Shown: in pieces, positions 1,743 through 54,615 of the stretch
How positions within the stretch are numbered: position 1 is the stretch's first letter
How the letters are laid out: each line of letters starts with the position of its first letter
Source of the DNA: a virus
IMG/VR virus record: IMGVR_UViG_3300025154_000061
Location: 1 to 64,000 of that record
Length of the DNA: 64,000 nucleotides
Direction: 5' to 3' (one strand)
Program-made: the position numbers and the translations under genes
Notes under the pieces: generated by a model
The model's input: the letters and a program-made list of their open reading frames with translations, nothing else
The model's database searches: none
What the model was told of the DNA's origin: nothing

Positions 1743-2844
1743 CCGCACGGCGAAGCGTGCCCTCGACGATATCCGGGTCGACGAACTGTCGATCGTCGAT
1801 CTGCCCGCGAACGAAGAGCCCTTCGCGATCGTGAAGAACGCGGCGCCCGAGCCCACCCCGGCGCCCGCCCCCGACACCACCAAGGCCGAGCCGCCCGCGC
1901 CGCCCGCGCCCGAGCCCGATCCCAAGCCCGCCGACGCGGGCGACAAGCCCGGGTGCTTCGGCATGAACGGCGAGCCCCTCGACGGCCTCGACTGCGCTTC
2001 GTGCCCCTTCGGCGGCGACTGCCTCGCGGCGACGCCCGAAGAGAAGCGCAAGCCGAAGGCGCCCGCCAAGACCGACGAGCCCGAGCCCACCCCGGCGCCC
2101 GAGCCCACGACCAAGGCTGTCGGCACGCCCGCTCACGACGCGCTGCTCGCCGAGAAGCTCGGGATGATCTCGGGTGTCGCCGCGCAGATCGCGAGCATGG
2201 CGCCCGACGCGACCCCCGAGGGGCTCGCGAAGCTCCGCTCGCAGGTCGACGCCCTCGGCGATCTGACGTGGTCGGTGCGCAACCTGCCCGTCGAGGCTAT
2301 GGCGCTCTCGAAGCGCTACACCGAGGCGCTCGGCAAGAACGACGCGAAGGGCGCTCTCGCCGTCGTGGGCGAGGCGATCGCGAAGGTCACGGGCACCGAC
2401 CCGACGATCGTCGCCGCGCCCGCCCCGGCGCCGACCCCCGCCGCCGAGCCCGAGCCCGTGAAGAAGAACGCCGCCGCTCGCCTCGACGCCGCCCTCGGCA
2501 AGATCGAAGCGGTCATGACCAAGCGGGGCGCGACGCAGTTCGGCGAGATCGCCGGGCTGCTCGACAAGCGCCTCGAAGACGATCCCGACGCGGTCGACCT
2601 GCGCGCCGCGCTCGAAGAGGTGCGCGAGGTCGTGAAGTCGCTCGAAGGCGTGCCCGACCTGTCGAGCCTCTTCGAGAACCTGACGAAGCGCGCCGATCCG
2701 GCCGCCGTCGCGGCCGCCGAGGTCGCCGATCTGCGCAAGCGGATCGAGCGGATCGAGGGCGCGGGCCTCACGAAGAGCACGGGCGGCGATCCCGCCCCGG
2801 CCCCCGCGCCGCGTTCGGTGTGGGAAGGATCGCCGATCGGCTAG
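1735..2844 (+). CDS. capsid scaffold/protease-associated protein
   Basis: N-terminal DIRVDELSIVDLPANE motif, Pro/Ala-rich linkers, helical C-terminus; directly before MCP. Confidence 0.7.
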   Translation: MADRTAKRALDDIRVDELSIVDLPANEEPFAIVKNAAPEPTPAPAPDTTKAEPPAPPAPEPDPKPADAGDKPGCFGMNGEPLDGLDCASCPFGGDCLAATPEEKRKPKAPAKTDEPEPTPAPEPTTKAVGTPAHDALLAEKLGMISGVAAQIASMAPDATPEGLAKLRSQVDALGDLTWSVRNLPVEAMALSKRYTEALGKNDAKGALAVVGEAIAKVTGTDPTIVAAPAPAPTPAAEPEPVKKNAAARLDAALGKIEAVMTKRGATQFGEIAGLLDKRLEDDPDAVDLRAALEEVREVVKSLEGVPDLSSLFENLTKRADPAAVAAAEVADLRKRIERIEGAGLTKSTGGDPAPAPAPRSVWEGSPIG

Positions 2845-2897
2845 AGGCCGAACCGGCGTGCGAGCACGACCGCGAACGTGAACCAGGGGGAAAGAAG

Positions 2898-4091
2898 ATG
2901 CGCAACGAAGAACTCTTGAAGGCCGCGATCACGGCGGCGGGCGCGCTCGCCACGACCGGCAAGCTGTCGCCTGAGCAGAGCGACAAGTTCCTCGACTACA
3001 TCGTCGACGAGACGAGCCTCGCGAACAACGCCCGCGTGATCAAGATGCAGGCCGAGACGCGCGAGATCAACAAGATCGGCGTCGGGAAGCGCGTCATGCT
3101 GCCCGCGACCGAGGCGACCGACCCGGGCACCCGGCGCGGCGTCACGACCTCGAAGATCGAACTCACGACCCGCGAGTTCATGATCCCCTTCGAGATCTCG
3201 GATCGCTTCGCCGAACTCGCCGTCGGCGCGAAGGGCGACGTCAAGGATCTCATCGTCAAGATGATGGCGAAGCAGGGCGCCAACGACCTCGAAACCCTCT
3301 ACCTGCGCGGCGACGTGCTCGGCGAGGCGACCCTCGAAGGCGACGTCGTCGACGGCGGATCCGACACGCTCTTCGTCAAGGATCCGCTGCTCGCGACCTT
3401 CGACGGGTGGCTGCGCAAGGCCGACGCGGGCAACCTCTTCAACGCCAACGGCGCGAACATCGGCGCGAGCGTCTTCTCGGCGATGATCCGCAAGATGCCC
3501 ACCAAGTTCCGCCGCAACCGCAAGGATCTGCGGTGGTTCGTGCCGAGCGACCTCGCGCAGTTGTGGCGCGAACGCGTCTCGGCCCGCGCGACGACCGAGG
3601 GCGACAAGGCGCTCGGCGGCGACTCGGGCCTCGCGCCCTTCGGGATCCCGCTCGTCGAAGTGCCCCTCCTGCCCTTCGAGCCGCCGACGGTCCAGCACGT
3701 CACGCTCCCGGGCACGACCAAGGTCAGCCTGCGCTACGCGCCGATCTCGAACGTGGTCGTGACCCCGACGACGCTCGGCTCGACGCCGACCGCGAAGTTC
3801 GTCGAGAACACCGACTACGAGGTCGACCTCGTCGCGGGCACGATCAACCGCAAGGCGGGCGGCGCGATCGGCGACGGCGTCACCGTCAAGGTGACGTTCC
3901 TCGCGCAGCCGCAGATCCTCCTGACGCACTTCGAGAACTTCATCGTCGGCCTCGGCCGCGATATCCGCGTCGAGAAGGATCGGAACATCTACACCCGCAT
4001 GGACCAGTACGCCGTGACCCTCACGGCGTCGGTCGCGTGCGAAGAGCCGACGGCGATCGTCAAGGGCTACAACGTCGGCCTCGGCGTCTAG
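2898..4091 (+). CDS. major capsid protein (XkdG-like, HK97 fold)
   Basis: ATG 2898 after GGGGG RBS; motifs GKLSPEQSDKFLDYIVD, DLETLYLRGD, FDGWL, MIRKMPTKF, FGIPLVEVP, IRVEKDR. Confidence 0.9.
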   Translation: MRNEELLKAAITAAGALATTGKLSPEQSDKFLDYIVDETSLANNARVIKMQAETREINKIGVGKRVMLPATEATDPGTRRGVTTSKIELTTREFMIPFEISDRFAELAVGAKGDVKDLIVKMMAKQGANDLETLYLRGDVLGEATLEGDVVDGGSDTLFVKDPLLATFDGWLRKADAGNLFNANGANIGASVFSAMIRKMPTKFRRNRKDLRWFVPSDLAQLWRERVSARATTEGDKALGGDSGLAPFGIPLVEVPLLPFEPPTVQHVTLPGTTKVSLRYAPISNVVVTPTTLGSTPTAKFVENTDYEVDLVAGTINRKAGGAIGDGVTVKVTFLAQPQILLTHFENFIVGLGRDIRVEKDRNIYTRMDQYAVTLTASVACEEPTAIVKGYNVGLGV

Positions 4092-4099
4092 TTCCGGGT

Positions 4100-4139
4100 G
4101 GGGGCGATAGGCGGGCCTAGCGCCTGACCTATCGCCCCC
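4100..4139 (+). terminator. GC-rich hairpin after MCP
   Basis: Inverted repeat GGGGGCGATAGG (4100-4111) / CCTATCGCCCCC (4128-4139). Confidence 0.55.
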
Positions 4140-4176
4140 TGCTCGGTTCTTGCGCACGGCGACGAAGGGGGAACGC

Positions 4177-4467
4177 ATGGCGCGGTTGATCGTCCCGAAG
4201 GTGAACGTCGAACTCGACGCGAGCACGCTCGCGCAGGTCGCCGACCGCTCGACGGCGGGATCGCTGCGTCTCTTCGCCGGGCAGCCTGCCCGGTTGACCG
4301 ACGGCGAGATCGAGGCGCTGCGCGTCGCTGGCGTTCGCTTCGTCGAGCACGTCGCCAAGAAGGCCCCCGTCAAGCCCGCCCCGGCGCTCGTCGAGGCCCC
4401 GAAGCCTGCGCCGAGGAAGCGCGGGGGCGACGCCCCGACGAGCGATCCCGAAACCGCGACCAAGTAA
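4177..4467 (+). CDS. small hypothetical virion-cluster protein
   Basis: AAGGGGG RBS then ATG 4177; typical codon usage. Confidence 0.65.
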   Translation: MARLIVPKVNVELDASTLAQVADRSTAGSLRLFAGQPARLTDGEIEALRVAGVRFVEHVAKKAPVKPAPALVEAPKPAPRKRGGDAPTSDPETATK

Positions 4468-4476
4468 GGGGGAACC

Positions 4477-5010
4477 ATGATCCGCAAGCTCTCGAACAAC
4501 GACGTCGCGGGATCGGGTGTGGCGGCCGACCACGCGGCCGCGCTGCTCTCGAAGTTCAATTCGCTCGTCAACGGCGCCTCGAAGCTCGACGCCGACGTCG
4601 TGCTCGTGAACGACGACCCCTACGGCCCGCACGACTTCCTCGTCGTGTTCGGCTTCACGGGCGACGCCGCGAAGTTCCTCGGCGCCGCCGTCTACGAGCG
4701 CGCGCTCGTCGCGGGCGGCGGCCCCGGCTTCGTCGGTGCCGACGTGACGATCGGCGTCGTCGACGTCGCGACCTCGACCTTCGTCGGCGTCAGCAAGACC
4801 GCGACGCTCGCCGCCGACGACAAGGTCGGCGTGATCGAGTTCGACGACACGGCCGAGAAGACCACGGCGATCACCGACGAGGCGTTCGCCGCGCTCGCCG
4901 GGGGCGGCGGCTCGCTGCCGTCGCACTATTGGGCCGCCGTCGTCACCGTCCCGGCCTCGAAGACCTTCGCCGCCCGCATCGTCGGCGCCGTCGAACTCGC
5001 GACCCGCTAA
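4477..5010 (+). CDS. hypothetical structural protein (possible head decoration)
   Basis: RBS, Val/Ala/Thr-rich beta-like composition, position in head cluster. Confidence 0.65.
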   Translation: MIRKLSNNDVAGSGVAADHAAALLSKFNSLVNGASKLDADVVLVNDDPYGPHDFLVVFGFTGDAAKFLGAAVYERALVAGGGPGFVGADVTIGVVDVATSTFVGVSKTATLAADDKVGVIEFDDTAEKTTAITDEAFAALAGGGGSLPSHYWAAVVTVPASKTFAARIVGAVELATR

Positions 5011-27363: not shown

Positions 27364-29760
27364 ATGATACGAGCGACCCAAACCGACGCCCGCGTGACCC
27401 TCGATCGCTTCGCCGACGATCGCGACGAGGTCTATCGCCTGCTCGATCGGCGCTTCCGCTACAAGGTCGAGGGCTACGAATACGCCCCCGCCTACCAAGC
27501 TCACCGTTGGGATGGTTGGACGCACCTCGTCAAGAAGGCGAGCGGGGTCGCGCTCGTCGTTCCGCTCGGGATCTGGCCCGAGTGCGCCGAGGTGCTCGCC
27601 GAGAACGGGGTCGAGTTCGAGCACGTCGACGAGCGCCGCCCGGTCGCGCCGCTCGACGGCGACGTCGAGTGGGTCGGCCCGACGCTGCGCGACTACCAAC
27701 GCGAGGCCCGCGACGCCGCGATCGCCTCGGGCTCGGGGGTCTTGAAGCTCCCGACCCGCGCGGGGAAGACCTTGATCGCCGCCTCGATCGCGCACGCCCT
27801 ACGCCTGCGGTCGATCTTCGTCGTGCCTTCCGAAATGCTGCTACGTCAGACCGCCGCCGCGTTCGCGAAGGCCCTCTCGGGGCTGCGCGTCTCGACGATC
27901 GGCGACGGCGAGTGGGATAGTTCGGGCGACGTGGTCGTCGCGACGATTCAAACCTTGTCGGCCGTGATAGAGACGAGGCGCTTTCGCACGCTCTCGCGCT
28001 CGTTCGATATTGCTTTTATTGACGAATGCTTTCCGGCCGGGACGCTCGTTGACGGCGTCCCGATTGAGGCGATCCGTGAGGGCGATCTCGTGACAGCCTA
28101 CGATCCCGACTCGGGATCGTTCTCTTCGCGGCGTGTCGCACGCACGTTCAAGCGTCCGGCCCCCGGGGGGCTCGTGACGATCGCCACGACGGCCGGGACT
28201 GTCTCTTGCACGCCGAATCACCCGTTCTTCACCCGGCGTGGTTGGGCGGCCGCCGGGGTGCTTGACGTTGGCGAAATGGTGGCTTACGCTACCGGCCCGA
28301 CGGGGTTAGATGAAAGGGGCGGGGATGAAGCGCAAGGTGATTCAGGGGAAGTGCGTCGAGTGCGGCTCGCAGATCGAGATCGTGGGATACAATCGGTGTC
28401 ACCTTTACGAGACGACGGGCCGGGGGTACTGCTCGGAAGTCTGCAAAAAGACTTGGATGTCCCGCCGTTGGTCAGAAACGATGGCCCGCACGAATCGAGT
28501 TTACGCGTCGGCGAGGATGCGCAAGCACAACCCGATGCACGACCCCGAAGTGCGCGAGGCCGTGACTGCGAAAGCTCGGGCTCGTGGTTGGCCTGTCGGC
28601 GTGCCGCGAGGGGGGAACGGGCACGGGCCGACGAGCGCGCAATCGACGTTGGCACTCGCTCTTGGCTGGGCGATCGAAGTAGCTGTGCCGACGGGCAGGG
28701 GGGCTCGCGCGAAGGGATTCCCGCCTTGCTACAAGATCGACGTAGCGAATCCGGCCGCGAAGATAGCCGTCGAGATCGATGGATCGGGGCACACCTCGAC
28801 GCGCGTCAAGCTAGCCGACGAGCGCAAGGCCGCGTTCTTGCGTGGGCTCGGGTGGAAAGTATTACGATTCAAGAATCAGGAAGTGATATCGGATCTTCCG
28901 ACGGTGATTGCCTCGATTATGTCTACAATTTAGAAGTCGAGGGCGTGCATACATATACGGCGAATGGCTTTGTCGTGCATAATTGCCACCACCTCTCGGG
29001 GCAGGGCGACGCGTGGCGCGCCGCCGCGAATGCGATCGAGGCCCGGCACCGCTTCGGGCTGTCGGCAACGGTCGGGCTCGACCCCGTCGGCGAGAACGAT
29101 GCAACCGACGTTTGGCTTCGCGCCGTCTGCGGCCCGATCGTCTACGAGGTTGCGATCTCGACCTTGATCGAGGCGGGTTACCTCGTGCGGCCGACGATCC
29201 GCTTTTTGCGCCACGGGGCGCCCGATCTGCCTTACGACCGTTGGTCGACGCGCGCCTACGCCGACGGGATCTCGAAGTGCGAGAAGCGCAACGAGAGGAT
29301 CGTCGCCGAGGCTGCGCGCTACGCGGGGCGCGGGCTGCGCGTGCTCGTCGACGTCGCCCGCGTGGGGCACGCCCGAGCCCTCGCCAACGCCTGCGCAAAG
29401 GCCCTTCCGCCCGGCCGGGTCGCCCTACTGCTCGGCACCTCGTCGGGCGACGAGCGCGCGGCCGTCGTGGCGTCGTGGCGTCGTGGCGAAGTGCTCGTCG
29501 TGGTCGGGACGATCCTCGGCGAAGGCGTCGACATTCCCGAACTCTCGGTCGTGATCAACGCCGAGGGGGGCAAGGCGAACGTCTCGGGGCTTCAACGCCT
29601 GCGCAACCTGACGCTCTCGCCCGGTAAGACCGAGGCGATCGTCGTCGAGTTTCTCGACACGCATCACCCGCACCTCTGCGATTGGACGGCACGCCGCCTC
29701 GCGCTCTACAGGCGTGAACGCGCCTTCAAGATCGAGGCTGAACCGAAGGGGGCAACGTGA
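27364..29760 (+). CDS. superfamily 2 (DExH) helicase containing an intein
   Basis: LRDYQ, PTRAGKT, DE|intein|CHH, GLSAT, GEGVDIP motifs. Confidence 0.92.
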   Translation: MIRATQTDARVTLDRFADDRDEVYRLLDRRFRYKVEGYEYAPAYQAHRWDGWTHLVKKASGVALVVPLGIWPECAEVLAENGVEFEHVDERRPVAPLDGDVEWVGPTLRDYQREARDAAIASGSGVLKLPTRAGKTLIAASIAHALRLRSIFVVPSEMLLRQTAAAFAKALSGLRVSTIGDGEWDSSGDVVVATIQTLSAVIETRRFRTLSRSFDIAFIDECFPAGTLVDGVPIEAIREGDLVTAYDPDSGSFSSRRVARTFKRPAPGGLVTIATTAGTVSCTPNHPFFTRRGWAAAGVLDVGEMVAYATGPTGLDERGGDEAQGDSGEVRRVRLADRDRGIQSVSPLRDDGPGVLLGSLQKDLDVPPLVRNDGPHESSLRVGEDAQAQPDARPRSARGRDCESSGSWLACRRAARGERARADERAIDVGTRSWLGDRSSCADGQGGSREGIPALLQDRRSESGREDSRRDRWIGAHLDARQASRRAQGRVLAWARVESITIQESGSDIGSSDGDCLDYVYNLEVEGVHTYTANGFVVHNCHHLSGQGDAWRAAANAIEARHRFGLSATVGLDPVGENDATDVWLRAVCGPIVYEVAISTLIEAGYLVRPTIRFLRHGAPDLPYDRWSTRAYADGISKCEKRNERIVAEAARYAGRGLRVLVDVARVGHARALANACAKALPPGRVALLLGTSSGDERAAVVASWRRGEVLVVVGTILGEGVDIPELSVVINAEGGKANVSGLQRLRNLTLSPGKTEAIVVEFLDTHHPHLCDWTARRLALYRRERAFKIEAEPKGAT
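28262..28290 (+). promoter_or_regulatory. intein-internal sigma70-like promoter TTGACG-N17-TACGCT
   Basis: -35 at 28262-28267, -10 at 28285-28290, 35 nt upstream of nested ATG 28325. Confidence 0.7.
28325..28933 (+). CDS. nested DUF559/Vsr-like PD-(D/E)XK endonuclease with N-terminal Zn finger, in the +1 frame inside the intein
   Basis: CVECG..YCSEVC; HNPMHDPEVR; YKIDVA...IAVEIDGSGH...DERKAAFLRGLGWKVLRFKN; AGGGG RBS; alternative ATG at 28310. Confidence 0.88.
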   Translation: MKRKVIQGKCVECGSQIEIVGYNRCHLYETTGRGYCSEVCKKTWMSRRWSETMARTNRVYASARMRKHNPMHDPEVREAVTAKARARGWPVGVPRGGNGHGPTSAQSTLALALGWAIEVAVPTGRGARAKGFPPCYKIDVANPAAKIAVEIDGSGHTSTRVKLADERKAAFLRGLGWKVLRFKNQEVISDLPTVIASIMSTI

Positions 29761-47439: not shown

Positions 47440-48295
47440 CCTTCGAGAACTCGGCGCCGAGTGGGCGACGTGCGCGCGTTGCCCGTTGCACGAGCGGCGC
47501 TCGTGCGTGATCGTGGGGGCTGCGGTCAAGAACGCGCCGACCGTCGACGATCCCCTTCTGCTCGTGATCGGCGAGGCGCCCGGCAGCGAGGAAGACGCCG
47601 AGGGCGTGCCGTTCGCCGGGAAGGCCGCCCGGGTCTTGCACGACGAGATCTTCGCGGGGGCTGGCGTTAGGCTTGCCTATGTCTCGAACTGCGTCGGCTG
47701 TCGCCCGCCCGGCAACCGCACCCCGGCACGCGCCGAGATCGAGGCGTGCGCGCCGCGTGTCGCTGCGTTGATCGAACTCACCGCGCCCGACGCGATCGTC
47801 GTGGTCGGCCCGGTCGCCGAGGAAGCCCTCGCCTCGGGGGTGTGGGGCGAGGGGGCCTCGACGCTGCCTTCCTGCGCGATCCTTCACCCGGCGACCCTTC
47901 TACACCGGGGGCACCCGACCGACGCAACGCGCCGGGCTTTGCGCGCCGAGGTCGCCAAGATCTCGCGCCTGCTCGTGCGCCTCGGGGCGAAGAGGCCCGC
48001 CAAAGCCGAGCCCGTGCCCGAGGTCGCCGAGGTCGTCGCGCCCGAGTGCGCGCACGTCGGGGTTCCGCTCGGTCGGCTCGTCGCTCGCGACGGCCGCGAG
48101 GCGCCCCTCGTAGTTTGTCGCGAGTGCGGCGTCGCCCTCTCGGATCCCAAGGCGGCAGGATTGACGCCAAGGCGTTCCGGCCGTCGAGGGGATACGACGT
48201 CAGGGGGCGCGCGCTCGAAACGCGCCACAATCGATCCTCGTGCGTCAGGCGACGAACGGGAGGGGGTAGACGATGCGACTCGCAACGATCGGTGA
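47426..48295 (+). CDS. uracil-DNA glycosylase family 4
   Basis: CARCPL, IGEAPG, GVPFAG, CRPPGNRTP, LHPA. Confidence 0.9.
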   Translation: MPPRNLRELGAEWATCARCPLHERRSCVIVGAAVKNAPTVDDPLLLVIGEAPGSEEDAEGVPFAGKAARVLHDEIFAGAGVRLAYVSNCVGCRPPGNRTPARAEIEACAPRVAALIELTAPDAIVVVGPVAEEALASGVWGEGASTLPSCAILHPATLLHRGHPTDATRRALRAEVAKISRLLVRLGAKRPAKAEPVPEVAEVVAPECAHVGVPLGRLVARDGREAPLVVCRECGVALSDPKAAGLTPRRSGRRGDTTSGGARSKRATIDPRASGDEREGVDDATRNDR

Positions 48296-49523
48296 TCTTC
48301 ACGTCGTCGACGGTGAACTCGACACGCAAGGCCCCGTGCTCGACGAGATCGCCGCAGGGGTCGAAGAGGCCCGGCCCGATCTCGTGCTCGTCGTGGGCGA
48401 TCTGTCGGGACACCGCGTCCCGCACAAGGCGACGCCCCGCGAGCGAAACGCGCTCGTCGGCTTCTTCGCGAAGCTGGCGCAGTGTGCGCCCGTCGTGATC
48501 GTGCGGGGGAATCACGACTACCCGCGCGATTGGGAGTTCCTGAACGCGATCGGCGGGCATTCGTTCTACTCGATCGGGTTCGTCGACGAGCCTTCGACGC
48601 TGACCGCTGGCAAGGCGGGGGCGCTCGCGCTCGTCGCGTGCTTCCCGTGGGTCGACCGTTCCCGGTTCGGTCCCGACGTCGACTACGGCGAGGCCGTGCG
48701 CACGCTCTACGACGCCGTCGTCGACGAGGCGCGCTCGACGATCGCCACGCTGCCCGACGACGAGTTGCCGAACGCCGTGGTCGCCCTCGGTCACTGCGCG
48801 ATCGCCGGGGGCATGATCGGGATCTTCGGTCAACCGTCGGTCCCGACCGCCGATCCCGTGGTCGCGATCGACGACGTCTGCCCGAGCGACGTCTTCGACG
48901 CGGGGTTCTTCGGGCACTACCACGCGCCGCAGGAACTACCCCGAGAGGGCGAGAGCGGGGGCGCCGCGTGCCGCTACGTGGGAAGCGCTTTCGTGTCGCA
49001 GCACGGCGAAGCGACCGCGAAGTCGTGGGGCGTGGTCGATATCTCGGGCGAGGGCAAGGCCCGAGCGCGAGAGATCCCGATCCCGCAGGCCCCGCGCGTG
49101 CTCTTGCGCGTCGACGGCGTCGCCCGTCGCATCGTCGAGATCGTGCCCGCCGCCCTTGTCGGGCTCTCGGCCGGGACGTTGATCGACGAGTGCAAGCCGA
49201 TCGCCTTACCTCGGGGCGCGCCGAGCGCGAGCGTGAAGGTGCGGATCGAGGGGGCGATCTCGATCACCGAGGCGGCCCGCGCGTTCGATGAGATCGCCGC
49301 GTTGGTCGCCCCGGCTGCGCACTCGATCAAGCGCGAGTTCGCGATCGAGCGCGTCGCCCGTGCTCGCGAGGGCGCCGACGAGATCGCCAAGGCGACGACG
49401 ACGGCCGACAAGCTCGCGCGCTACCTCGACACGATCAACCCCGCGCCGAGAGGCGTGATCCGCAAGCGGGCGATCGCGTTGCTGGCCGAAATCGAAGCGA
49501 CGCTCGACGCCCCGATCGCGTAG
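48273..49523 (+). CDS. sbcD: SbcD/Mre11-like nuclease
   Basis: GDLH, GDL, GNHD, GHYH metallophosphoesterase motifs. Confidence 0.9.
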   Translation: MRLATIGDLHVVDGELDTQGPVLDEIAAGVEEARPDLVLVVGDLSGHRVPHKATPRERNALVGFFAKLAQCAPVVIVRGNHDYPRDWEFLNAIGGHSFYSIGFVDEPSTLTAGKAGALALVACFPWVDRSRFGPDVDYGEAVRTLYDAVVDEARSTIATLPDDELPNAVVALGHCAIAGGMIGIFGQPSVPTADPVVAIDDVCPSDVFDAGFFGHYHAPQELPREGESGGAACRYVGSAFVSQHGEATAKSWGVVDISGEGKARAREIPIPQAPRVLLRVDGVARRIVEIVPAALVGLSAGTLIDECKPIALPRGAPSASVKVRIEGAISITEAARAFDEIAALVAPAAHSIKREFAIERVARAREGADEIAKATTTADKLARYLDTINPAPRGVIRKRAIALLAEIEATLDAPIA

Positions 49524-49556: not shown

Positions 49557-49895
49557 ATGACGACCGACGGCAAGCTCGACGTCACCAAGTCGACGAAGAA
49601 GCGGGGCGATCTCGCCCCGGGCGCAGCGAGTGAGGCCGTGCCGGTCCCCTCGGGGCTGGCGCCTTCGGCGCACGAGCCCGAACATAGGTTCGCGCGGATC
49701 CGCGTGAACAAGGGGGCGACGATCAACATTGGCCGAATGGAGTTCCTTCGCTGCGACGTCGCGGTCGAACTCCCGTGCAAGCCCGATCTCGCCTCGCTCG
49801 ACCGGGCGATCGATATCGCCGATACGATCGCGAACGACCGCCTCGTCGCTGAGATCGAGAACGCCCGCAAGCAGTCGGGCGGGGGCGACAAGTGA
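49557..49895 (+). CDS. hypothetical phage protein
   Basis: RBS; GATINIGRMEFLRCDV motif. Confidence 0.65.
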   Translation: MTTDGKLDVTKSTKKRGDLAPGAASEAVPVPSGLAPSAHEPEHRFARIRVNKGATINIGRMEFLRCDVAVELPCKPDLASLDRAIDIADTIANDRLVAEIENARKQSGGGDK

Positions 49896-51718
49896 AGACC
49901 TACCCCTCGCTCTTGCGCGCCGCGAAGATCGAAATGCACGGGGCCTTTCAGCCCCGCAAGATCGACGGGCTCTTCTCGGCCGACGACGTCGAGAAGATGC
50001 GCCAAGGCGGCCGCGACGCGGGCCGCCCCTCGGGGTGGGATCCCGCGCGCTACGAGCCGATCAAGGTGTGGAACCCCGACAGCAACGACGCGACCTGCCC
50101 GGCCGCGCTGCGCGATCGCTTCGCCGAGTGGTTCGTGATCAAGGGCTTTCACCGCCTCGCGCTGGCGAGGGCGTGCGGGATCGAGTCGCTCGACGTGATC
50201 GTCTGCGCGGGCTCGTTCGACGAGGCGGTCGCCGCGAGCAAGCGCTCGAACTTCGAGACGCGCGCGCTTCACCCGATCGACGAAGCCGCCGTCTATCGCG
50301 ATCGCCTTGAAGCGGGCGACACGCCCGAGCAGATCTCGCGCGACCTCGACCGCCGCGCGCCCGCCTACTACCGCAAGCGGGCCGCCGTCGCCTACCTGTC
50401 GCCCTCGTTGATCGCCGACGTGCGCTCGGGGCTTCTGCGCCTCGACTACGCCGAGCACGTCGGCCGCGCCGCGCAAGTCGGGGCGAGCCCGGCCGCGCAG
50501 GTCGCGATCGCCTCGGTCGCTGCCCGAACTTCCATGCGCGCCGAGCTTTTCGGGCGTTACGTCGACAAGGTGATCGCCGCAATTGCCGCCGCGAAACCGG
50601 GCGAAGACGTGGTCGACGTCGCCGCCCGCGAGGGGAAGACGCTTGATCTCTTCCCGCCGACGTTCGACGCGGGGGTCGCTGCCGTCGAGTCGATCACGAT
50701 CGGCGAGGCTCGACGCGAGAGCGTGCGCGACGGGTGGGCGTCGATCGGGCACGCCGCCCGAGCGCAGTTGAAGCGCCTCGAAACCGAGGGGGTTCCGCCC
50801 CCGCCCGCCCTTGGAAGGTTGATCGCCATGATCGATAAGCAGCGCGCAGGGGAAGACAGGGCGGTCGCCGCGAGCGTCGGGGCAACCGACACGCGCGAAG
50901 CGCTGCCGTTGATCAAGTGGGTCGGGTCGAAGCGCACCGAGGCCCCGACGCTCGCCGCGATCATTCGCGCACGCCTGCGGCCCGGCGCCGAATACTTCGA
51001 GCCCTTCTTCGGATCGGGCTCGGTCTTCTTCGCCGTCGCCCCCGAAACCGCCGTGATCGGCGACGTGCTCGAACCCGTGGTAAACCTTTACAAGTCGACC
51101 CGAGACGACCCCCGCGCGGTCTTCGCCGCCATGCGGGCGATCGTCGAGAAGGGGCTCGACAAGGCGTCGTTCCTCGCCGCCCGTGACGCCGACCCGCCCG
51201 CCGATCGCTTCGAGCGCGCGGGGTGGTTTCTCTACCTGAACCGCACGGGGTTCAACGGGCTGTGGCGCACGAACAAGTCGGGCAAGCTGAACGCCCCCTT
51301 CGGCACGCCGAAGACCGTCGCCGCCTTCCCGACGCTCGATCGCTTCGAGCGCTGCGCCGAGATTCTCTCGGGCGCCGTGCTCTACTGCGGCGACTACTCG
51401 AAGGGCGTCGCCCGCGCCAAGGCTGGCGACGTGGTCTTCGCCGACCCGCCCTACCCCGGCACGTTCAGCGACTACGCCAAGCGCACGGGGCCGATCGACT
51501 ACGCCAAGCTCGCCGCCGACCTGCGCGCCGCGCACGATCGGGGGGCGCACGTCGTGACGACCCTCGCCGCGAGCGAAGACCTCGACGCGCTCTTCTCGCC
51601 TTGGTGCTACCGCGTCGACCTTTCGCGCACCTCGAACGTCTCTTGCAAGGCGTCGACGAGGGGCGAGTTCAAGCAGGTCGTTTGGTGCTCGCACGAGCGA
51701 GAGGGGGCCGCCGAATGA
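49892..51718 (+). CDS. ParB-like domain fused to Dam-family DNA adenine methyltransferase
   Basis: N-terminal FQPR, PIKVW, IKGFHRL; C-terminal IKWVGSK, EPFFGSGSV, LNRTGFNGL, DPPY. Confidence 0.85.
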   Translation: MKTYPSLLRAAKIEMHGAFQPRKIDGLFSADDVEKMRQGGRDAGRPSGWDPARYEPIKVWNPDSNDATCPAALRDRFAEWFVIKGFHRLALARACGIESLDVIVCAGSFDEAVAASKRSNFETRALHPIDEAAVYRDRLEAGDTPEQISRDLDRRAPAYYRKRAAVAYLSPSLIADVRSGLLRLDYAEHVGRAAQVGASPAAQVAIASVAARTSMRAELFGRYVDKVIAAIAAAKPGEDVVDVAAREGKTLDLFPPTFDAGVAAVESITIGEARRESVRDGWASIGHAARAQLKRLETEGVPPPPALGRLIAMIDKQRAGEDRAVAASVGATDTREALPLIKWVGSKRTEAPTLAAIIRARLRPGAEYFEPFFGSGSVFFAVAPETAVIGDVLEPVVNLYKSTRDDPRAVFAAMRAIVEKGLDKASFLAARDADPPADRFERAGWFLYLNRTGFNGLWRTNKSGKLNAPFGTPKTVAAFPTLDRFERCAEILSGAVLYCGDYSKGVARAKAGDVVFADPPYPGTFSDYAKRTGPIDYAKLAADLRAAHDRGAHVVTTLAASEDLDALFSPWCYRVDLSRTSNVSCKASTRGEFKQVVWCSHEREGAAE

Positions 51719-54615
51719 AGATCGAACGCGTGCGCCTCGACGGGATCACCCGCTACCGCAGGCCGATCGAACTCGCGCTTCCCGAGGGGGTCGTCGCGAT
51801 CGTCGGGCCGAACGGGTGCCTACAGGGCGACGTAGAGATTTACGATCCAACGGACGGATCGTCCGTCGCCGTTCGCGATCGTTACAATCGGGGCGTGCCG
51901 TTTCACGTATGGGCGTTAGGGCCGCATGGGGTCGTAACGACGGCCGCAATGCCCCCTTGCAAGTATCCGCCCGCTCAAATGCTGCGATTGCGGTTCGCGG
52001 ACGGGAAGTCGATTACGGTGACTCCGGCGCACAAGTTTTGGAGCGGCGCCGAGTGGTTGACAGCTTCCGCCATTTTTCAAGCCCTGCGAGAGAACGGGCG
52101 CGTCCGGCTGCCGTCCAGTTCGGCCGCTTACCTGTCAACTCATGCCGAAGATGATCTGCGTTGGTGCGAAATAATTCCAGATTCTCCGGGCGGTTGTCGG
52201 CGTGTTCCCCGTTGCGATGATGCACGACTTCTTCCGGCAGAAGTCGGCGCCCGAGAATCCGTTCCATTACGAGGCGATGCTCCCGAACTAGCCCTTTGCG
52301 ATCTGCGTCGGGGTGATACGGAAGCCGTAGAAGAATGTAGCCGTCGGCGTCAATCACCCGACCGCCGCGCCACGACCCATTGCGAGCGCCCGGCGCTCCC
52401 CGGTCACGAATCGCTCCTCCGACGTTGCGGATTGCCTTCGCGATCCGGCTTTGATTCGAGTGCATTGACCGGGCGATCTCCGCGAGACTCGCCCCGCTCT
52501 CGTAGCGTGCAAGAGCTTCGCGCCTCCGCTCATCCGTCCAATTCTGACGCATCGACGCCCCCCGGGGTTATGGTTCCTTTCGAAACATACCCCGCGATTG
52601 ACCCGTCGACAATCGAAATTGTCGCGGTTGGCGAGCTACCGTGCGAGCCTTACTACGACTTCCACGTCCCGGTTCACCTAAACTATTGGGCCGCCGGGGT
52701 CTGGAATCACAACTCCGGCAAGACGACGCTTCTCGAATGCCTCGGCCCGGCCGTCTTCTTCCGCGAGTTGCCGACCCGCGAGCCCTCGGGAATCCAGAAT
52801 TGGATCGGGCCGAAGGGCGGCCGGATCGAACTCGACTTCGTGCGGGGCTCGCGCCGCTACGAAGCGATCGTCGAGATCGACGGGTCGGGCAGGCAAGCCG
52901 CGTTCCTGACGTGCGACGGGGTCAAGCTCGCGTCGGGCAAGGTGCGCGACTACGACGTCGAGATCGCGAAGGTGGTCGGCAACCGCGACGCCTTCTACGC
53001 CTCGGTCTTCGGGATGCAGGGCGGGGGCGGGCGCTTCGAGTCGCTCGAAGTCACCGACCGCAAGGCGATCTTTCGCTACTACCTCGGGCTCGACCGGGTC
53101 GACAAGGCGCACCGCGCCGCCCGCGCCCGCCTCGAAGCGCTCGACGTCTCGAAGATCGCCACGCTGCGCGCCGATCTCGAAGCCTGCGAGACGGCGATCG
53201 CCGAGGCCGAGGCCGACGTCAAGGCTGCGGTCTTCGCGGCCGACGCCGAGCGCGAGGTAAGTCGCAAGGCGCGCGCCAAGCTCGACGACCTGCTCGCGCT
53301 CTCGTCGACGGCCGAACTCGTCGACGCCTACGACACCGCTCTCGACGCGGCGGGCGAGGCGCAAGACGCGCTCACCGCCCTACCTGCCCGCCCGGCCGCC
53401 GCGCCTGCGCCGACGGGCGACAAGGGCGCCGCTACGATCGCCTTAGAGGCCGCGAGGAAGAAGAACGAGGGCTACCTCGTCAAGAGCGCCGAGATCGCCC
53501 GCGTCGGCTCTTCGCTGGCGACGGCGAACGCCGACCTCGTGCGGGCGAACAAGGCGACCGAGCGTCTCGCGCGCGTGCCGTGCAAGGGCGAGGGCGCCTT
53601 CGCCGGGTGCGAGTTGCTGCGCGACGCGATCGCCGCGCGCGAATCGATCGCTGCGCTGCGCGACGTGTGCGCCAAGGCCGAGCAGGCGCACGAGACGTTG
53701 AAGGTCGAGGTCGCCGCGCTCGTCGTGCCCCGCGAGAAGCTCGACGCACTGCGCGCCAAGGTCGCCGAGGCCGAGCGGGAACTTGAAGCGCACCGCCTCG
53801 GGGCCGAGCGCTGCCGCGCCTACGACGAGAAGCGCGATCGACTGAACCGTGCGCTCGCTGACGCGAAGAGGCAGGCCGCCGCGCTGCGTGCCCGGCTGCC
53901 GAAGGTGATCGACGACGTGCCGTCGCTGGCGCAGATCGACGCCGCTCGCGAGGCGAGCGCCGCCGCGAGTGCCGCCTACGAGAAGGCGATCCGCGAGCAC
54001 GAGGCGGGCGTCGCTGCGTTCGGCGGCGCCCTCGATCGCAAGGCCGGGATCGAGAAGGCCCTCGCCGCCGAGGAAGCTCGCGCCGCCGACGCGCCCGCGC
54101 TCGAACTGCTCGCCCGCGCTCTCGGGGCGAACGGGATCCAAGCCTACGAGATCGACGCCGCAGGCCCCCGCGTCTCGGCCCTCGCGAACTCGCTCTTGCA
54201 TGCCTGCTACGGGCCGCGCTTCGACGTCGAGGTGCGCACGACGAAGGCGTTGAAGAGTGGCAAGGGCGAGAAGGAAGACTTCGACGTCGTCGTCTACGAC
54301 AACGACAGCGGGATCGAGAACACGATCGCCGGGCTGTCGGGGGGCGAGAAGGTGATCGTCGACGAGGCGCTTCGGCTGTCGCTCGTGATCTTCGCCGACG
54401 AGCGCCTCTCGGTTCCGTTCCGGGTGCTCTACCGCGACGAGACGATCGGCGGGCTCACCCGGGACAACCGCGCCGCCTATGCGCGAATGCTTCACCGCGC
54501 CCGCGATCTCGGCGACTTCGGGCAGATCTTCCAAGTGACCCACGACGAAGAGTCGAGCGAGAGCGCCGATGTCGTGATCGCGATCGACGAGTCGGGCAAT
54601 GTCTCGGTCGCATGA
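51715..54615 (+). CDS. sbcC: SbcC/Rad50 ATPase containing an intein
   Basis: GPNG|intein|SGKTT, coiled coils, LSGGEK, YRDE, VTH. Confidence 0.92.
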   Translation: MKIERVRLDGITRYRRPIELALPEGVVAIVGPNGCLQGDVEIYDPTDGSSVAVRDRYNRGVPFHVWALGPHGVVTTAAMPPCKYPPAQMLRLRFADGKSITVTPAHKFWSGAEWLTASAIFQALRENGRVRLPSSSAAYLSTHAEDDLRWCEIIPDSPGGCRRVPRCDDARLLPAEVGARESVPLRGDAPELALCDLRRGDTEAVEECSRRRQSPDRRATTHCERPALPGHESLLRRCGLPSRSGFDSSALTGRSPRDSPRSRSVQELRASAHPSNSDASTPPGVMVPFETYPAIDPSTIEIVAVGELPCEPYYDFHVPVHLNYWAAGVWNHNSGKTTLLECLGPAVFFRELPTREPSGIQNWIGPKGGRIELDFVRGSRRYEAIVEIDGSGRQAAFLTCDGVKLASGKVRDYDVEIAKVVGNRDAFYASVFGMQGGGGRFESLEVTDRKAIFRYYLGLDRVDKAHRAARARLEALDVSKIATLRADLEACETAIAEAEADVKAAVFAADAEREVSRKARAKLDDLLALSSTAELVDAYDTALDAAGEAQDALTALPARPAAAPAPTGDKGAATIALEAARKKNEGYLVKSAEIARVGSSLATANADLVRANKATERLARVPCKGEGAFAGCELLRDAIAARESIAALRDVCAKAEQAHETLKVEVAALVVPREKLDALRAKVAEAERELEAHRLGAERCRAYDEKRDRLNRALADAKRQAAALRARLPKVIDDVPSLAQIDAAREASAAASAAYEKAIREHEAGVAAFGGALDRKAGIEKALAAEEARAADAPALELLARALGANGIQAYEIDAAGPRVSALANSLLHACYGPRFDVEVRTTKALKSGKGEKEDFDVVVYDNDSGIENTIAGLSGGEKVIVDEALRLSLVIFADERLSVPFRVLYRDETIGGLTRDNRAAYARMLHRARDLGDFGQIFQVTHDEESSESADVVIAIDESGNVSVA
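52013..52552 (-). CDS. nested antisense HTH + HNH endonuclease inside the SbcC intein
   Basis: YESGASLAEIAR (HTH), NGSWRGGR..DGY, EHRLVME..LGR.L...EVVHHRNG..DNRPENLEL; GGGGGG RBS 5 nt before ATG. Confidence 0.9.
   Translation of the reverse strand: MRQNWTDERRREALARYESGASLAEIARSMHSNQSRIAKAIRNVGGAIRDRGAPGARNGSWRGGRVIDADGYILLRLPYHPDADRKGLVREHRLVMERILGRRLLPEEVVHHRNGEHADNRPENLELFRTNADHLRHELTGKRPNWTAAGRARSLAGLEKWRKLSTTRRRSKTCAPESP
52584..52612 (-). promoter_or_regulatory. intein-internal antisense promoter TTGTCG-N17-TATGTT
   Basis: -35 at 52612-52607, -10 at 52589-52584, about 30 nt upstream of HNH ATG 52552. Confidence 0.65.

Follow-up and report, generated by a model that had tools for sequence, protein, structure and literature searches.

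A predicted P-loop intein in a phage sbcC-like gene carries a candidate HTH-HNH homing-endonuclease gene on its opposite strand

Endonuclease genes that run antisense to the intein holding them are known for nucleases of the LAGLIDADG and Vsr-like types (Gosselin 2025; Gorbalenya 1998, as related in citing preprints). According to such preprints, the contiguous DnaX intein of Synechocystis contains an antisense endonuclease open reading frame (ORF; Gorbalenya 1998), and antisense LAGLIDADG inteins occur in this protein and in a SpoVR-like protein of Chloroflexus (Gorbalenya 1998; Gogarten 2002, both in the form in which later work cites them). Inteins of actinobacteriophage minor-capsid proteins also contain an antisense LAGLIDADG ORF (Gosselin et al., bioRxiv 10.1101/2025.01.02.630785), and frame-specific selection has been described for a cyanobacterial dnaX intein with an out-of-frame LAGLIDADG endonuclease (bioRxiv 10.64898/2026.09.14.751524). 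In the fractured genes, the intein is split, all three ORFs lie on one strand and the nucleases are of the GIY-YIG or Vsr-like type (Dassa et al. 2009, PMC2677866). The ShiLan element is a same-strand, out-of-frame HNH ORF within a phage methylase gene, with no detectable splicing domain (Arsenault et al. 2025, PMC11855218). Here we describe a related arrangement in the virus record IMGVR_UViG_3300025154_000061, a linear sequence of 92,259 bp that is about 90% complete and originates from groundwater metagenomes. The window, that is the whole stretch of DNA analysed, covers positions 1 to 64,000 of this record. Its sbcC-like ATPase gene is interrupted, within the Walker A motif, by a candidate class-1 intein whose opposite strand holds a gene for a helix-turn-helix (HTH)-HNH protein. 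Full-text literature searches found no published report of an antisense HNH gene in an intein, the HNH endonuclease being described there solely as an in-frame domain. The locus is a variant of the antisense-endonuclease intein layout already described, not a new category.

We consider it very likely that this locus is a cis-splicing P-loop intein carrying an antisense HTH-HNH homing-endonuclease gene. The host gene and the intein are organized as follows on the plus strand.

51715 to 54615, plus strand: sbcC-like ATPase gene, a single uninterrupted ORF including the intein (ATG at 51715, 966 codons plus a stop at 54615)
51715 to 51816, plus strand: N-extein of 34 residues, identified from the sequence, which begins MKIERVRLDG and ends VGPNG, the first half of Walker A
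51817 to 52713, plus strand: class-1 intein of 299 residues (897 nt), with its Cys codon at 51817-51819, its Asn codon at 52711-52713 and the Ser +1 codon at 52714-52716
51817 to 52146, plus strand: N-terminal splicing domain of the intein (residues 1 to about 110), delimited by the beta strands of the model and by alignment with the N-terminal part of mini-inteins
52147 to 52599, plus strand: read-through linker of the intein (residues about 111-261), a stop-free translation opposite the HNH gene, delimited by the model and by comparison with mini-inteins
52600 to 52713, plus strand: C-terminal splicing domain (residues 262-299, blocks F and G, YYDFHVP...NYWAAGVWNHN), delimited by the model and alignments
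52714 to 54612, plus strand: C-extein, which begins SGKTTLLE, the second half of Walker A (sequence and phrog_77 match)

Removal of the intein joins GPNG to SGKT and restores the Walker A motif GPNGSGKT, the intein-less junction in the DNA being GGGCCGAACGGG|TCCGGCAAG. An alignment of 38 inteins shows no variation at C1, H72, D281, H298 and N299; T69, which forms block B as T69-P-A-H72, is conserved to at least 90%, and the C-terminal splicing domain is the best conserved stretch of the intein. The same type of insertion point, G|[STC]GK[ST] with the bar marking the junction, is found in nearly all of the approximately 73 related loci for which the junction was mapped. Some terminases, among them loci L097, L113, L133 and L141, have their intein one step later, past the Lys (GK|T...), and several inteins end with KN, AN, SN or EN, not HN.

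The AlphaFold (AF2) model of the intein, built on the intein alignment, adopts the HINT fold, with pLDDT scores (predicted local distance difference test) of 93-98 over residues 1-100 and of 97-98 over residues 271-299. Foldseek matched this model to the Mtu RecA intein (2imz, E value 9e-7, probability 1.0) and to the Ssp DnaB and Ssp/Npu DnaE inteins (probability 1.0, target template modelling (TM) score up to 0.83). The Pfam Intein_splicing match is weak, at 16 bits for a cut-off of 35.8. The C-extein matches phrog_77, annotated as 'SbcC-like subunit of palindrome specific endonuclease', with an E value of 4.5e-36; the SMC_N match of the product is weak, and a gene for an SbcD-like metallophosphoesterase lies upstream at 48273-49523. 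The original prediction had placed an SbcC intein at 51817-52713, and the catalytic residues, the HINT model, the Walker A junction and the phrog_77 match of the C-extein bear this out. The segment is thus predicted to be a class-1 intein that would splice in cis from between the Gly and Ser of Walker A. Its G+C content (GC) is 0.60 overall and 0.68 at third codon positions (GC3), compared with 0.70 and 0.91 in the extein flanks, a difference that points to a recent arrival. The alignment of the C-extein with phrog_77 starts at position 332 of the 967 positions of the profile, although the N-extein is only 34 residues long, and the profile itself may hold about 300 intein positions.

The two splicing domains are separated by a linker for which the model gives pLDDT scores of 62-64 at residues 111-130 and of 37-50 at residues 130-260, approximately, with no secondary structure past about residue 116. 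This linker is missing from the related mini-inteins of 139-196 residues. We considered whether its plus-strand frame could encode a genuine domain; this was ruled out by the low pLDDT, by a sequence identity of 22% among relatives and by its absence from the mini-inteins.

On the minus strand, the intein contains the following elements.

52013 to 52552, minus strand: HTH-HNH homing-endonuclease gene, 179 codons plus TAA, with its ATG at 52552-52550, wholly inside the intein (predicted from Pfam, PHROG, homologues and the model)
52424 to 52534, minus strand: predicted three-helix HTH DNA-binding domain (residues 7-43 of the HNH protein; helices 7-18, 23-29 and 34-43 in the model)
52127 to 52390, minus strand: predicted HNH catalytic core (residues 55-142, with the motifs N.SWRGG, EHRLVME, VVHHRNG, DNRPENL and NADH), delimited by conservation in 50 relatives
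52558 to 52563, minus strand: likely ribosome-binding site of the HNH gene, GGGGGG-N5-ATG, a G-run that resembles the other starts of the phage and whose function would follow from this resemblance
52013 to 52146, both strands: two-strand coding overlap, in which the end of the folded N-terminal domain of the intein, from block B onward, faces the last part of the HNH gene (its 3' end, coding for some of the core, for the C-terminal helix of residues 148-171 and for the tail)

The HNH protein passes the Pfam family HNH_3 (PF13392) with 33.1 bits for a cut-off of 24.8 (E value 4e-8), matches PHROG HNH families with E values down to 7e-27 and has 1,935 homologues, the best of them 60-65% identical. 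In an alignment of 50 HNH relatives, W61, H92, R93, E108, H112, N120, N124, N131 and H134 are invariant, and the motifs N.SW.GG, EHRLVME, VHHRNG and DNRPENL are largely conserved; H112, N120, N124, N131 and H134 presumably comprise the catalytic and metal-binding residues. The AF2 model has a mean pLDDT of 89.8, with values of 85-94 for the C-terminal helix 148-171, and its core contains, in a beta-beta-alpha arrangement, the strands 109-112 and 125-128 and the helix 131-139. The only nuclease among the top matches of this model is I-HmuI (1u3e), which we take to be a member of Pfam HNH_3. The HTH part of the model resembles the HTH domains of GcrA and the Tc3 transposase (VIA Z scores of 6.5-7.1) and of the Tn3 resolvase (6.3), and the Pfam HTH matches of the protein are weak. 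An N-terminal HTH, a canonical HNH with these four motifs and a location wholly inside the intein had all been proposed at the outset: the coordinates hold, the motifs are present, the three-helix HTH is modelled and the HNH_3 threshold is passed. The proposed overlap of the TAA stop with intein block B (ITVTPAH) also stands, since the stop reads TTA at 52013-52015 on the plus strand, within the codons ATT ACG of SITVTPAH. The first codon positions of the HNH gene fall on the first codon positions of the sbcC frame.

These data argue that the minus-strand ORF is a real gene for an HTH-HNH_3 endonuclease, whose product would cleave DNA. The contrary view takes it for what is left of a gene in decay, or for an ORF that arose by chance in a GC-rich genome, so that the intein would effectively be a mini-intein with a junk linker. 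Long spurious ORFs are indeed numerous in this GC-rich DNA, and the related mini-inteins exist. Against such an origin stand the Pfam and PHROG thresholds that the protein passes, its invariant catalytic residues, the 55% identity of the HNH core, the confident full-length model and the intact ORF with a ribosome-binding site; we regard a remnant or chance origin as hardly credible. The original prediction also took this ORF for the only convincing minus-strand gene of the 64 kb; GC3 does not separate the frames here, since 33 minus frames of this GC-rich genome have a GC3 of at least 0.8.

In order to compare the locus with its relatives, we assembled two sets. A search with intein motifs yielded 80 viral and 5 genomic related loci, and a search of IMG/VR based on the HNH protein, which was without bias toward open frames, yielded at least 592 stretches, of which the best 80 were examined. 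An HNH homologue was found in 62 of the 85 intein-motif loci, always on the opposite strand and between the splicing domains. The original prediction had suggested looking for related inteins with and without the insert, and both kinds came to light, as these 62 HNH-bearing loci and as the mini-inteins. An in-frame or sense-strand version of the HNH was found in none of the 142 loci examined.

Over 52013-52552, the sbcC frame contains no stop codon, while the other four frames contain 4-7. We evaluated this openness by shuffling synonymous codons within the HNH ORF, a procedure that preserves the HNH protein and its own codon usage. With 3.3 stops expected, the probability of an open sbcC frame was 0.0085; the explanation that the host frame is open by chance was rejected on this test. 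The host frame is stop-free across the whole HNH ORF in 61 of the 62 HNH-bearing loci, whose GC ranges from 35% to 67%, and the other frames of the host strand contain 3-22 stops. When the loci were reduced to a non-redundant set at less than 80% identity (n=50), the frame was open in 49, with a per-locus P below 0.01 in most. In the HNH-based search, the HNH ORF of 77 of the best 80 IMG/VR loci is enclosed by an open frame on the opposite strand, and these frames measure 184-1,787 codons and, with one exception, exceed 530; inspection by eye placed the ends of the intein at the P-loop (G|[STC]GK or GK|T) in all but one of the loci inspected. Two free-standing relatives served as controls, gp30 of Mycobacterium phage Jabbawokkie and a Caudoviricetes HNH gene, and contain 8 and 17 stops in the corresponding frame.

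The two strands are conserved very differently: over the nucleotides of the HNH core, the mean pairwise identity among the 50 relatives is 55% in the HNH frame and 22% in the host frame. Selection evidently acts on the sequence of the HNH protein and, as judged from the stop-free frames, also keeps the host frame open across the HNH gene. Because of its 22% identity, its disordered model and its absence from mini-inteins, the host frame is kept free of stops and no more, its product being a loop that is tolerated where an endonuclease is usually inserted. From 52013 to about 52146 this loop-only role finds an exception, since in our models both strands appear to encode confidently folded protein.

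The intein and the HNH gene also seem to have travelled together. The divergence of the splicing domain correlates with that of the HNH core (Mantel r 0.585), none of 5,000 permutations reaching a value as high, and the frame of the HNH gene relative to the intein is identical in all related loci compared. The related exteins are mutually unrelated except for the P-loop. We scanned 40 C-exteins: 22 match large-terminase N-terminal families (Terminase_6N 14, Terminase_3 8), and the remaining classes are AAA+ proteins, clamp-loader subunits, helicases, SMC/SbcC and TraG-like proteins. In the same scan, 2 of the 40 matched Intein_splicing and 2 matched Hint_2, so that additional inteins may be present in some host genes, downstream of the one in the P-loop. 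The comparisons indicate that the intein and its HNH gene are co-inherited as one mobile unit in varied P-loop genes. One could instead see in the HNH gene an independent selfish passenger that uses a tolerant loop as a safe harbour and cuts another target, without mobilising the intein. Free-standing phage relatives of the HNH protein exist, and the data point to no particular cleavage site, both of which would suit a passenger; yet this HNH subfamily is almost confined to P-loop inteins (77 of the 80 closest relatives), and the constant frame relation, the co-divergence with the splicing domain and the joint occurrence of the pair in unrelated host genes speak for a common fate. We therefore hold a passenger to be improbable.

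Contigs from four other groundwater and soil runs carry the same intein-bearing allele and extend across both junctions of the intein. In these four runs, whose cover is patchy, alleles lacking the intein or the HNH gene did not appear, and a blastn search of the sbcC-like gene against phage records gave no match.

Since the two genes are on opposite strands, a separate minus-strand transcript would be needed if the HNH protein is made. None of the sequencing runs listed as containing this DNA is an RNA run. The start GGGGGG-N5-ATG of the HNH gene fits the G-runs that precede most plus-strand genes of the same phage. The ribosome-binding sites of this phage are GGGG or GGGGG placed 5-9 nt before the ATG (e.g. 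153, 1735, 9004, 48273, 51715), not AGGAGG. That minus-strand RNA might in addition act as an antisense regulator of sbcC is speculation.

Certain points weigh against a contiguous, cis-splicing intein with an expressed antisense endonuclease. A consensus scan found no sigma-70-like promoter in 51700-53000, where the sequence TTGTCG-N17-TATGTT fell below the threshold of the scan. The fold match of the HNH model to I-HmuI is middling (Foldseek probability 0.93, E value 0.29; VIA Z score 7.0 over 84 residues at 21% identity): Foldseek gave no match to the PDB at an E value of 0.001 or less, and a wider VIA search gave middling Z scores only. The antisense transcript, the splicing and the cleavage with its target are all steps that we infer. 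Finally, an ATG at 52570, just ahead of the C-terminal intein domain, was used by a gene caller and gives a 681-residue product.

This last start codon suits a different reading, in which the locus is a functionally split 'fractured gene': the N-extein with the N-intein would form one chain and the C-intein with the C-extein another, trans-splicing would unite the two, and the open frame would be irrelevant. Locus L002 (IMGVR_UViG_3300049489_001113, 223-1293), an AAA ATPase gene, offers a precedent, with 6 host-frame stops opposite its HNH gene and a C-terminal intein domain preceded by its own start, AGAGG-N8-ATG. L002 is, as far as its sequence tells, a split form of the antisense-HNH intein, which resembles a fractured gene except for its antisense nuclease. 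At the sbcC locus, however, the frame of the intein is stop-free, so that the N-terminal part cannot terminate, and the G-run lies merely 2 nt before the ATG at 52570, compared with the usual 5-9 nt of the phage. Moreover, the frame is open against strong odds in 49 of the 50 non-redundant loci and in 77 of the 80 from the HNH-based search, which makes sense only if read-through matters. Trans-splicing of separate chains thus seems to us improbable to an even slightly greater degree than a selfish passenger.

For the contiguous intein with its antisense gene, which we prefer, the following mechanism can be proposed. A mobile intein would have inserted into Walker A, and the slot that normally receives an in-frame endonuclease domain would have been taken by an antisense HTH-HNH gene. 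Ribosomes translating sbcC would pass, without meeting a stop, along the roughly 150 codons that face the HNH gene and produce a disordered loop; the N- and C-terminal halves of the HINT domain would then fold together, leading to excision of the intein and restoration of GPNGSGKT. The HNH protein would be made from its own minus-strand transcript by means of the GGGGGG-N5-ATG start. It would nick or cut intein-less P-loop alleles, and recombinational repair would copy the intein together with the nuclease gene, thus achieving homing.

Different stages of this association can be recognized among the relatives. Loci L082 and L085, both from the Chloroflexi metagenome-assembled genome CALBSQ01, are 90-95% identical alleles or paralogues. 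A single clean in-frame gap of 567 nt, corresponding to 3040-3606 of L082, sets them apart: through it L085 lacks the 5' part of its HNH gene, of which it retains a 3' remnant. The mini-intein of L085 would thus have arisen by deletion, because this remnant is kept. With the contiguous, split (L002) and HNH-deleted (L085 versus L082) stages side by side, the evolutionary cycle becomes testable.

Cultured phages also carry this arrangement. Pectobacterium phage Koroua (PQ008972; L086, record 2451-4715) and its relatives have an unannotated antisense HNH homologue in a 754-residue 'hypothetical protein'. The Koroua protein, encoded next to the portal gene, is a large terminase with an intein, and its hidden ORF passes HNH_3; a promoter scan of the locus found nothing upstream of the HNH gene on the correct strand. 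In Pseudoalteromonas phage PHS3 (KX912252; L087), the HNH gene is annotated and a 708-residue ORF spans it on the other strand, whereas the 'terminase large subunit' is annotated in truncated form, confined to the part that lies downstream of the HNH gene. Gene callers split or mislabel the host genes that bear such inteins, as they also do in the present phage, where sbcC is called as a 681-residue fragment. Since carriers exist in culture, tests become possible of expression by strand, of splicing across an unstructured insert of 150 residues and of homing.

A broader claim would be that inteins spread among phage ATPase genes to a large extent by way of the antisense HTH-HNH P-loop intein, a major vehicle so far unrecognised, and that the antisense layout itself is adaptive. 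We consider this rather unlikely, though well worth stating. If it were true, convergent transcription or antisense RNA would couple the nuclease inversely to host-gene expression and thereby limit toxicity, and the stretch of about 130 nt with folded protein on both strands would lock the nuclease to the splicing domain. An adaptive layout would also account for the stable single frame relation and for the lack of any in-frame or sense version among the 142 loci.

Two neighbouring regions of the window deserve mention. Between sbcD and sbcC, an ORF of 608 residues (49892-51718) contains a D12-class N6-adenine methyltransferase domain (E value 7e-30), preceded by an N-terminal part of about 340 residues without a Pfam match. 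A second non-canonical intein is present in a ResIII/DEAD helicase gene of the same phage (27364-29760), with a Pfam Intein_splicing match above the cut-off (E value 3e-9); a same-strand ORF in the +1 frame, at 28325-28933, matches DUF559 (Vsr-like) with an E value of 4e-12.

Compared with the systems described so far, the sbcC intein is closest to the antisense-LAGLIDADG inteins. In both, the intein is contiguous, the host frame is open and the splicing blocks enclose a nuclease ORF that runs on the opposite strand, and the antisense-LAGLIDADG inteins are thought to have arisen, as would be the case here, when a free-standing nuclease gene invaded a mini-intein. In contrast to these and to the Vsr-like cases, the nuclease is of the HTH-HNH_3 (I-HmuI-like) type; the insertion point, again unlike that of the antisense-LAGLIDADG inteins, is the Walker A P-loop, shared by many ATPases, and the family is large, as at least 592 relatives of the HNH occur in IMG/VR. 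The cyanobacterial dnaX intein shares the overlapping frames, with purifying selection on the nuclease frame and relaxed selection on the host frame in the overlap, but its nuclease belongs to a different family. Like the in-frame HNH inteins of a 1997 report, as far as that report is known from secondary sources, the sbcC locus combines an intein with an HNH nuclease; here, however, the opposite strand encodes the HNH and the precursor never includes it, the HNH being antisense in 62 of 62 related loci. The fractured genes of Dassa et al. resemble it in that the halves of an intein flank a separate nuclease gene in a phage enzyme gene, which fits the model of mini-intein invasion, whereas the sbcC intein is contiguous, has no host-frame stop and bears its HNH gene antisense, L002 alone being split.

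Outside the inteins, I-HmuI (PDB 1u3e), a nicking homing endonuclease of the HNH type from an intron of Bacillus phage SPO1, similarly has a helical module for DNA binding besides its HNH core; it is encoded on the sense strand of a group I intron, while the present gene is antisense in an intein and its HTH is N-terminal. The ShiLan element likewise has a hidden HNH ORF that overlaps a stop-free host frame, but at the sbcC locus the HNH ORF is on the opposite strand and flanked by a complete intein. The present family thus adds a fourth nuclease type and a large, diverse family to the inteins that have their homing enzyme encoded by a separate, overlapping gene. This lends support to the idea that inteins gain endonucleases when free-standing nuclease genes invade mini-inteins, and the locus offers a clear case from nature in which both strands of the same DNA segment have long been under selection.

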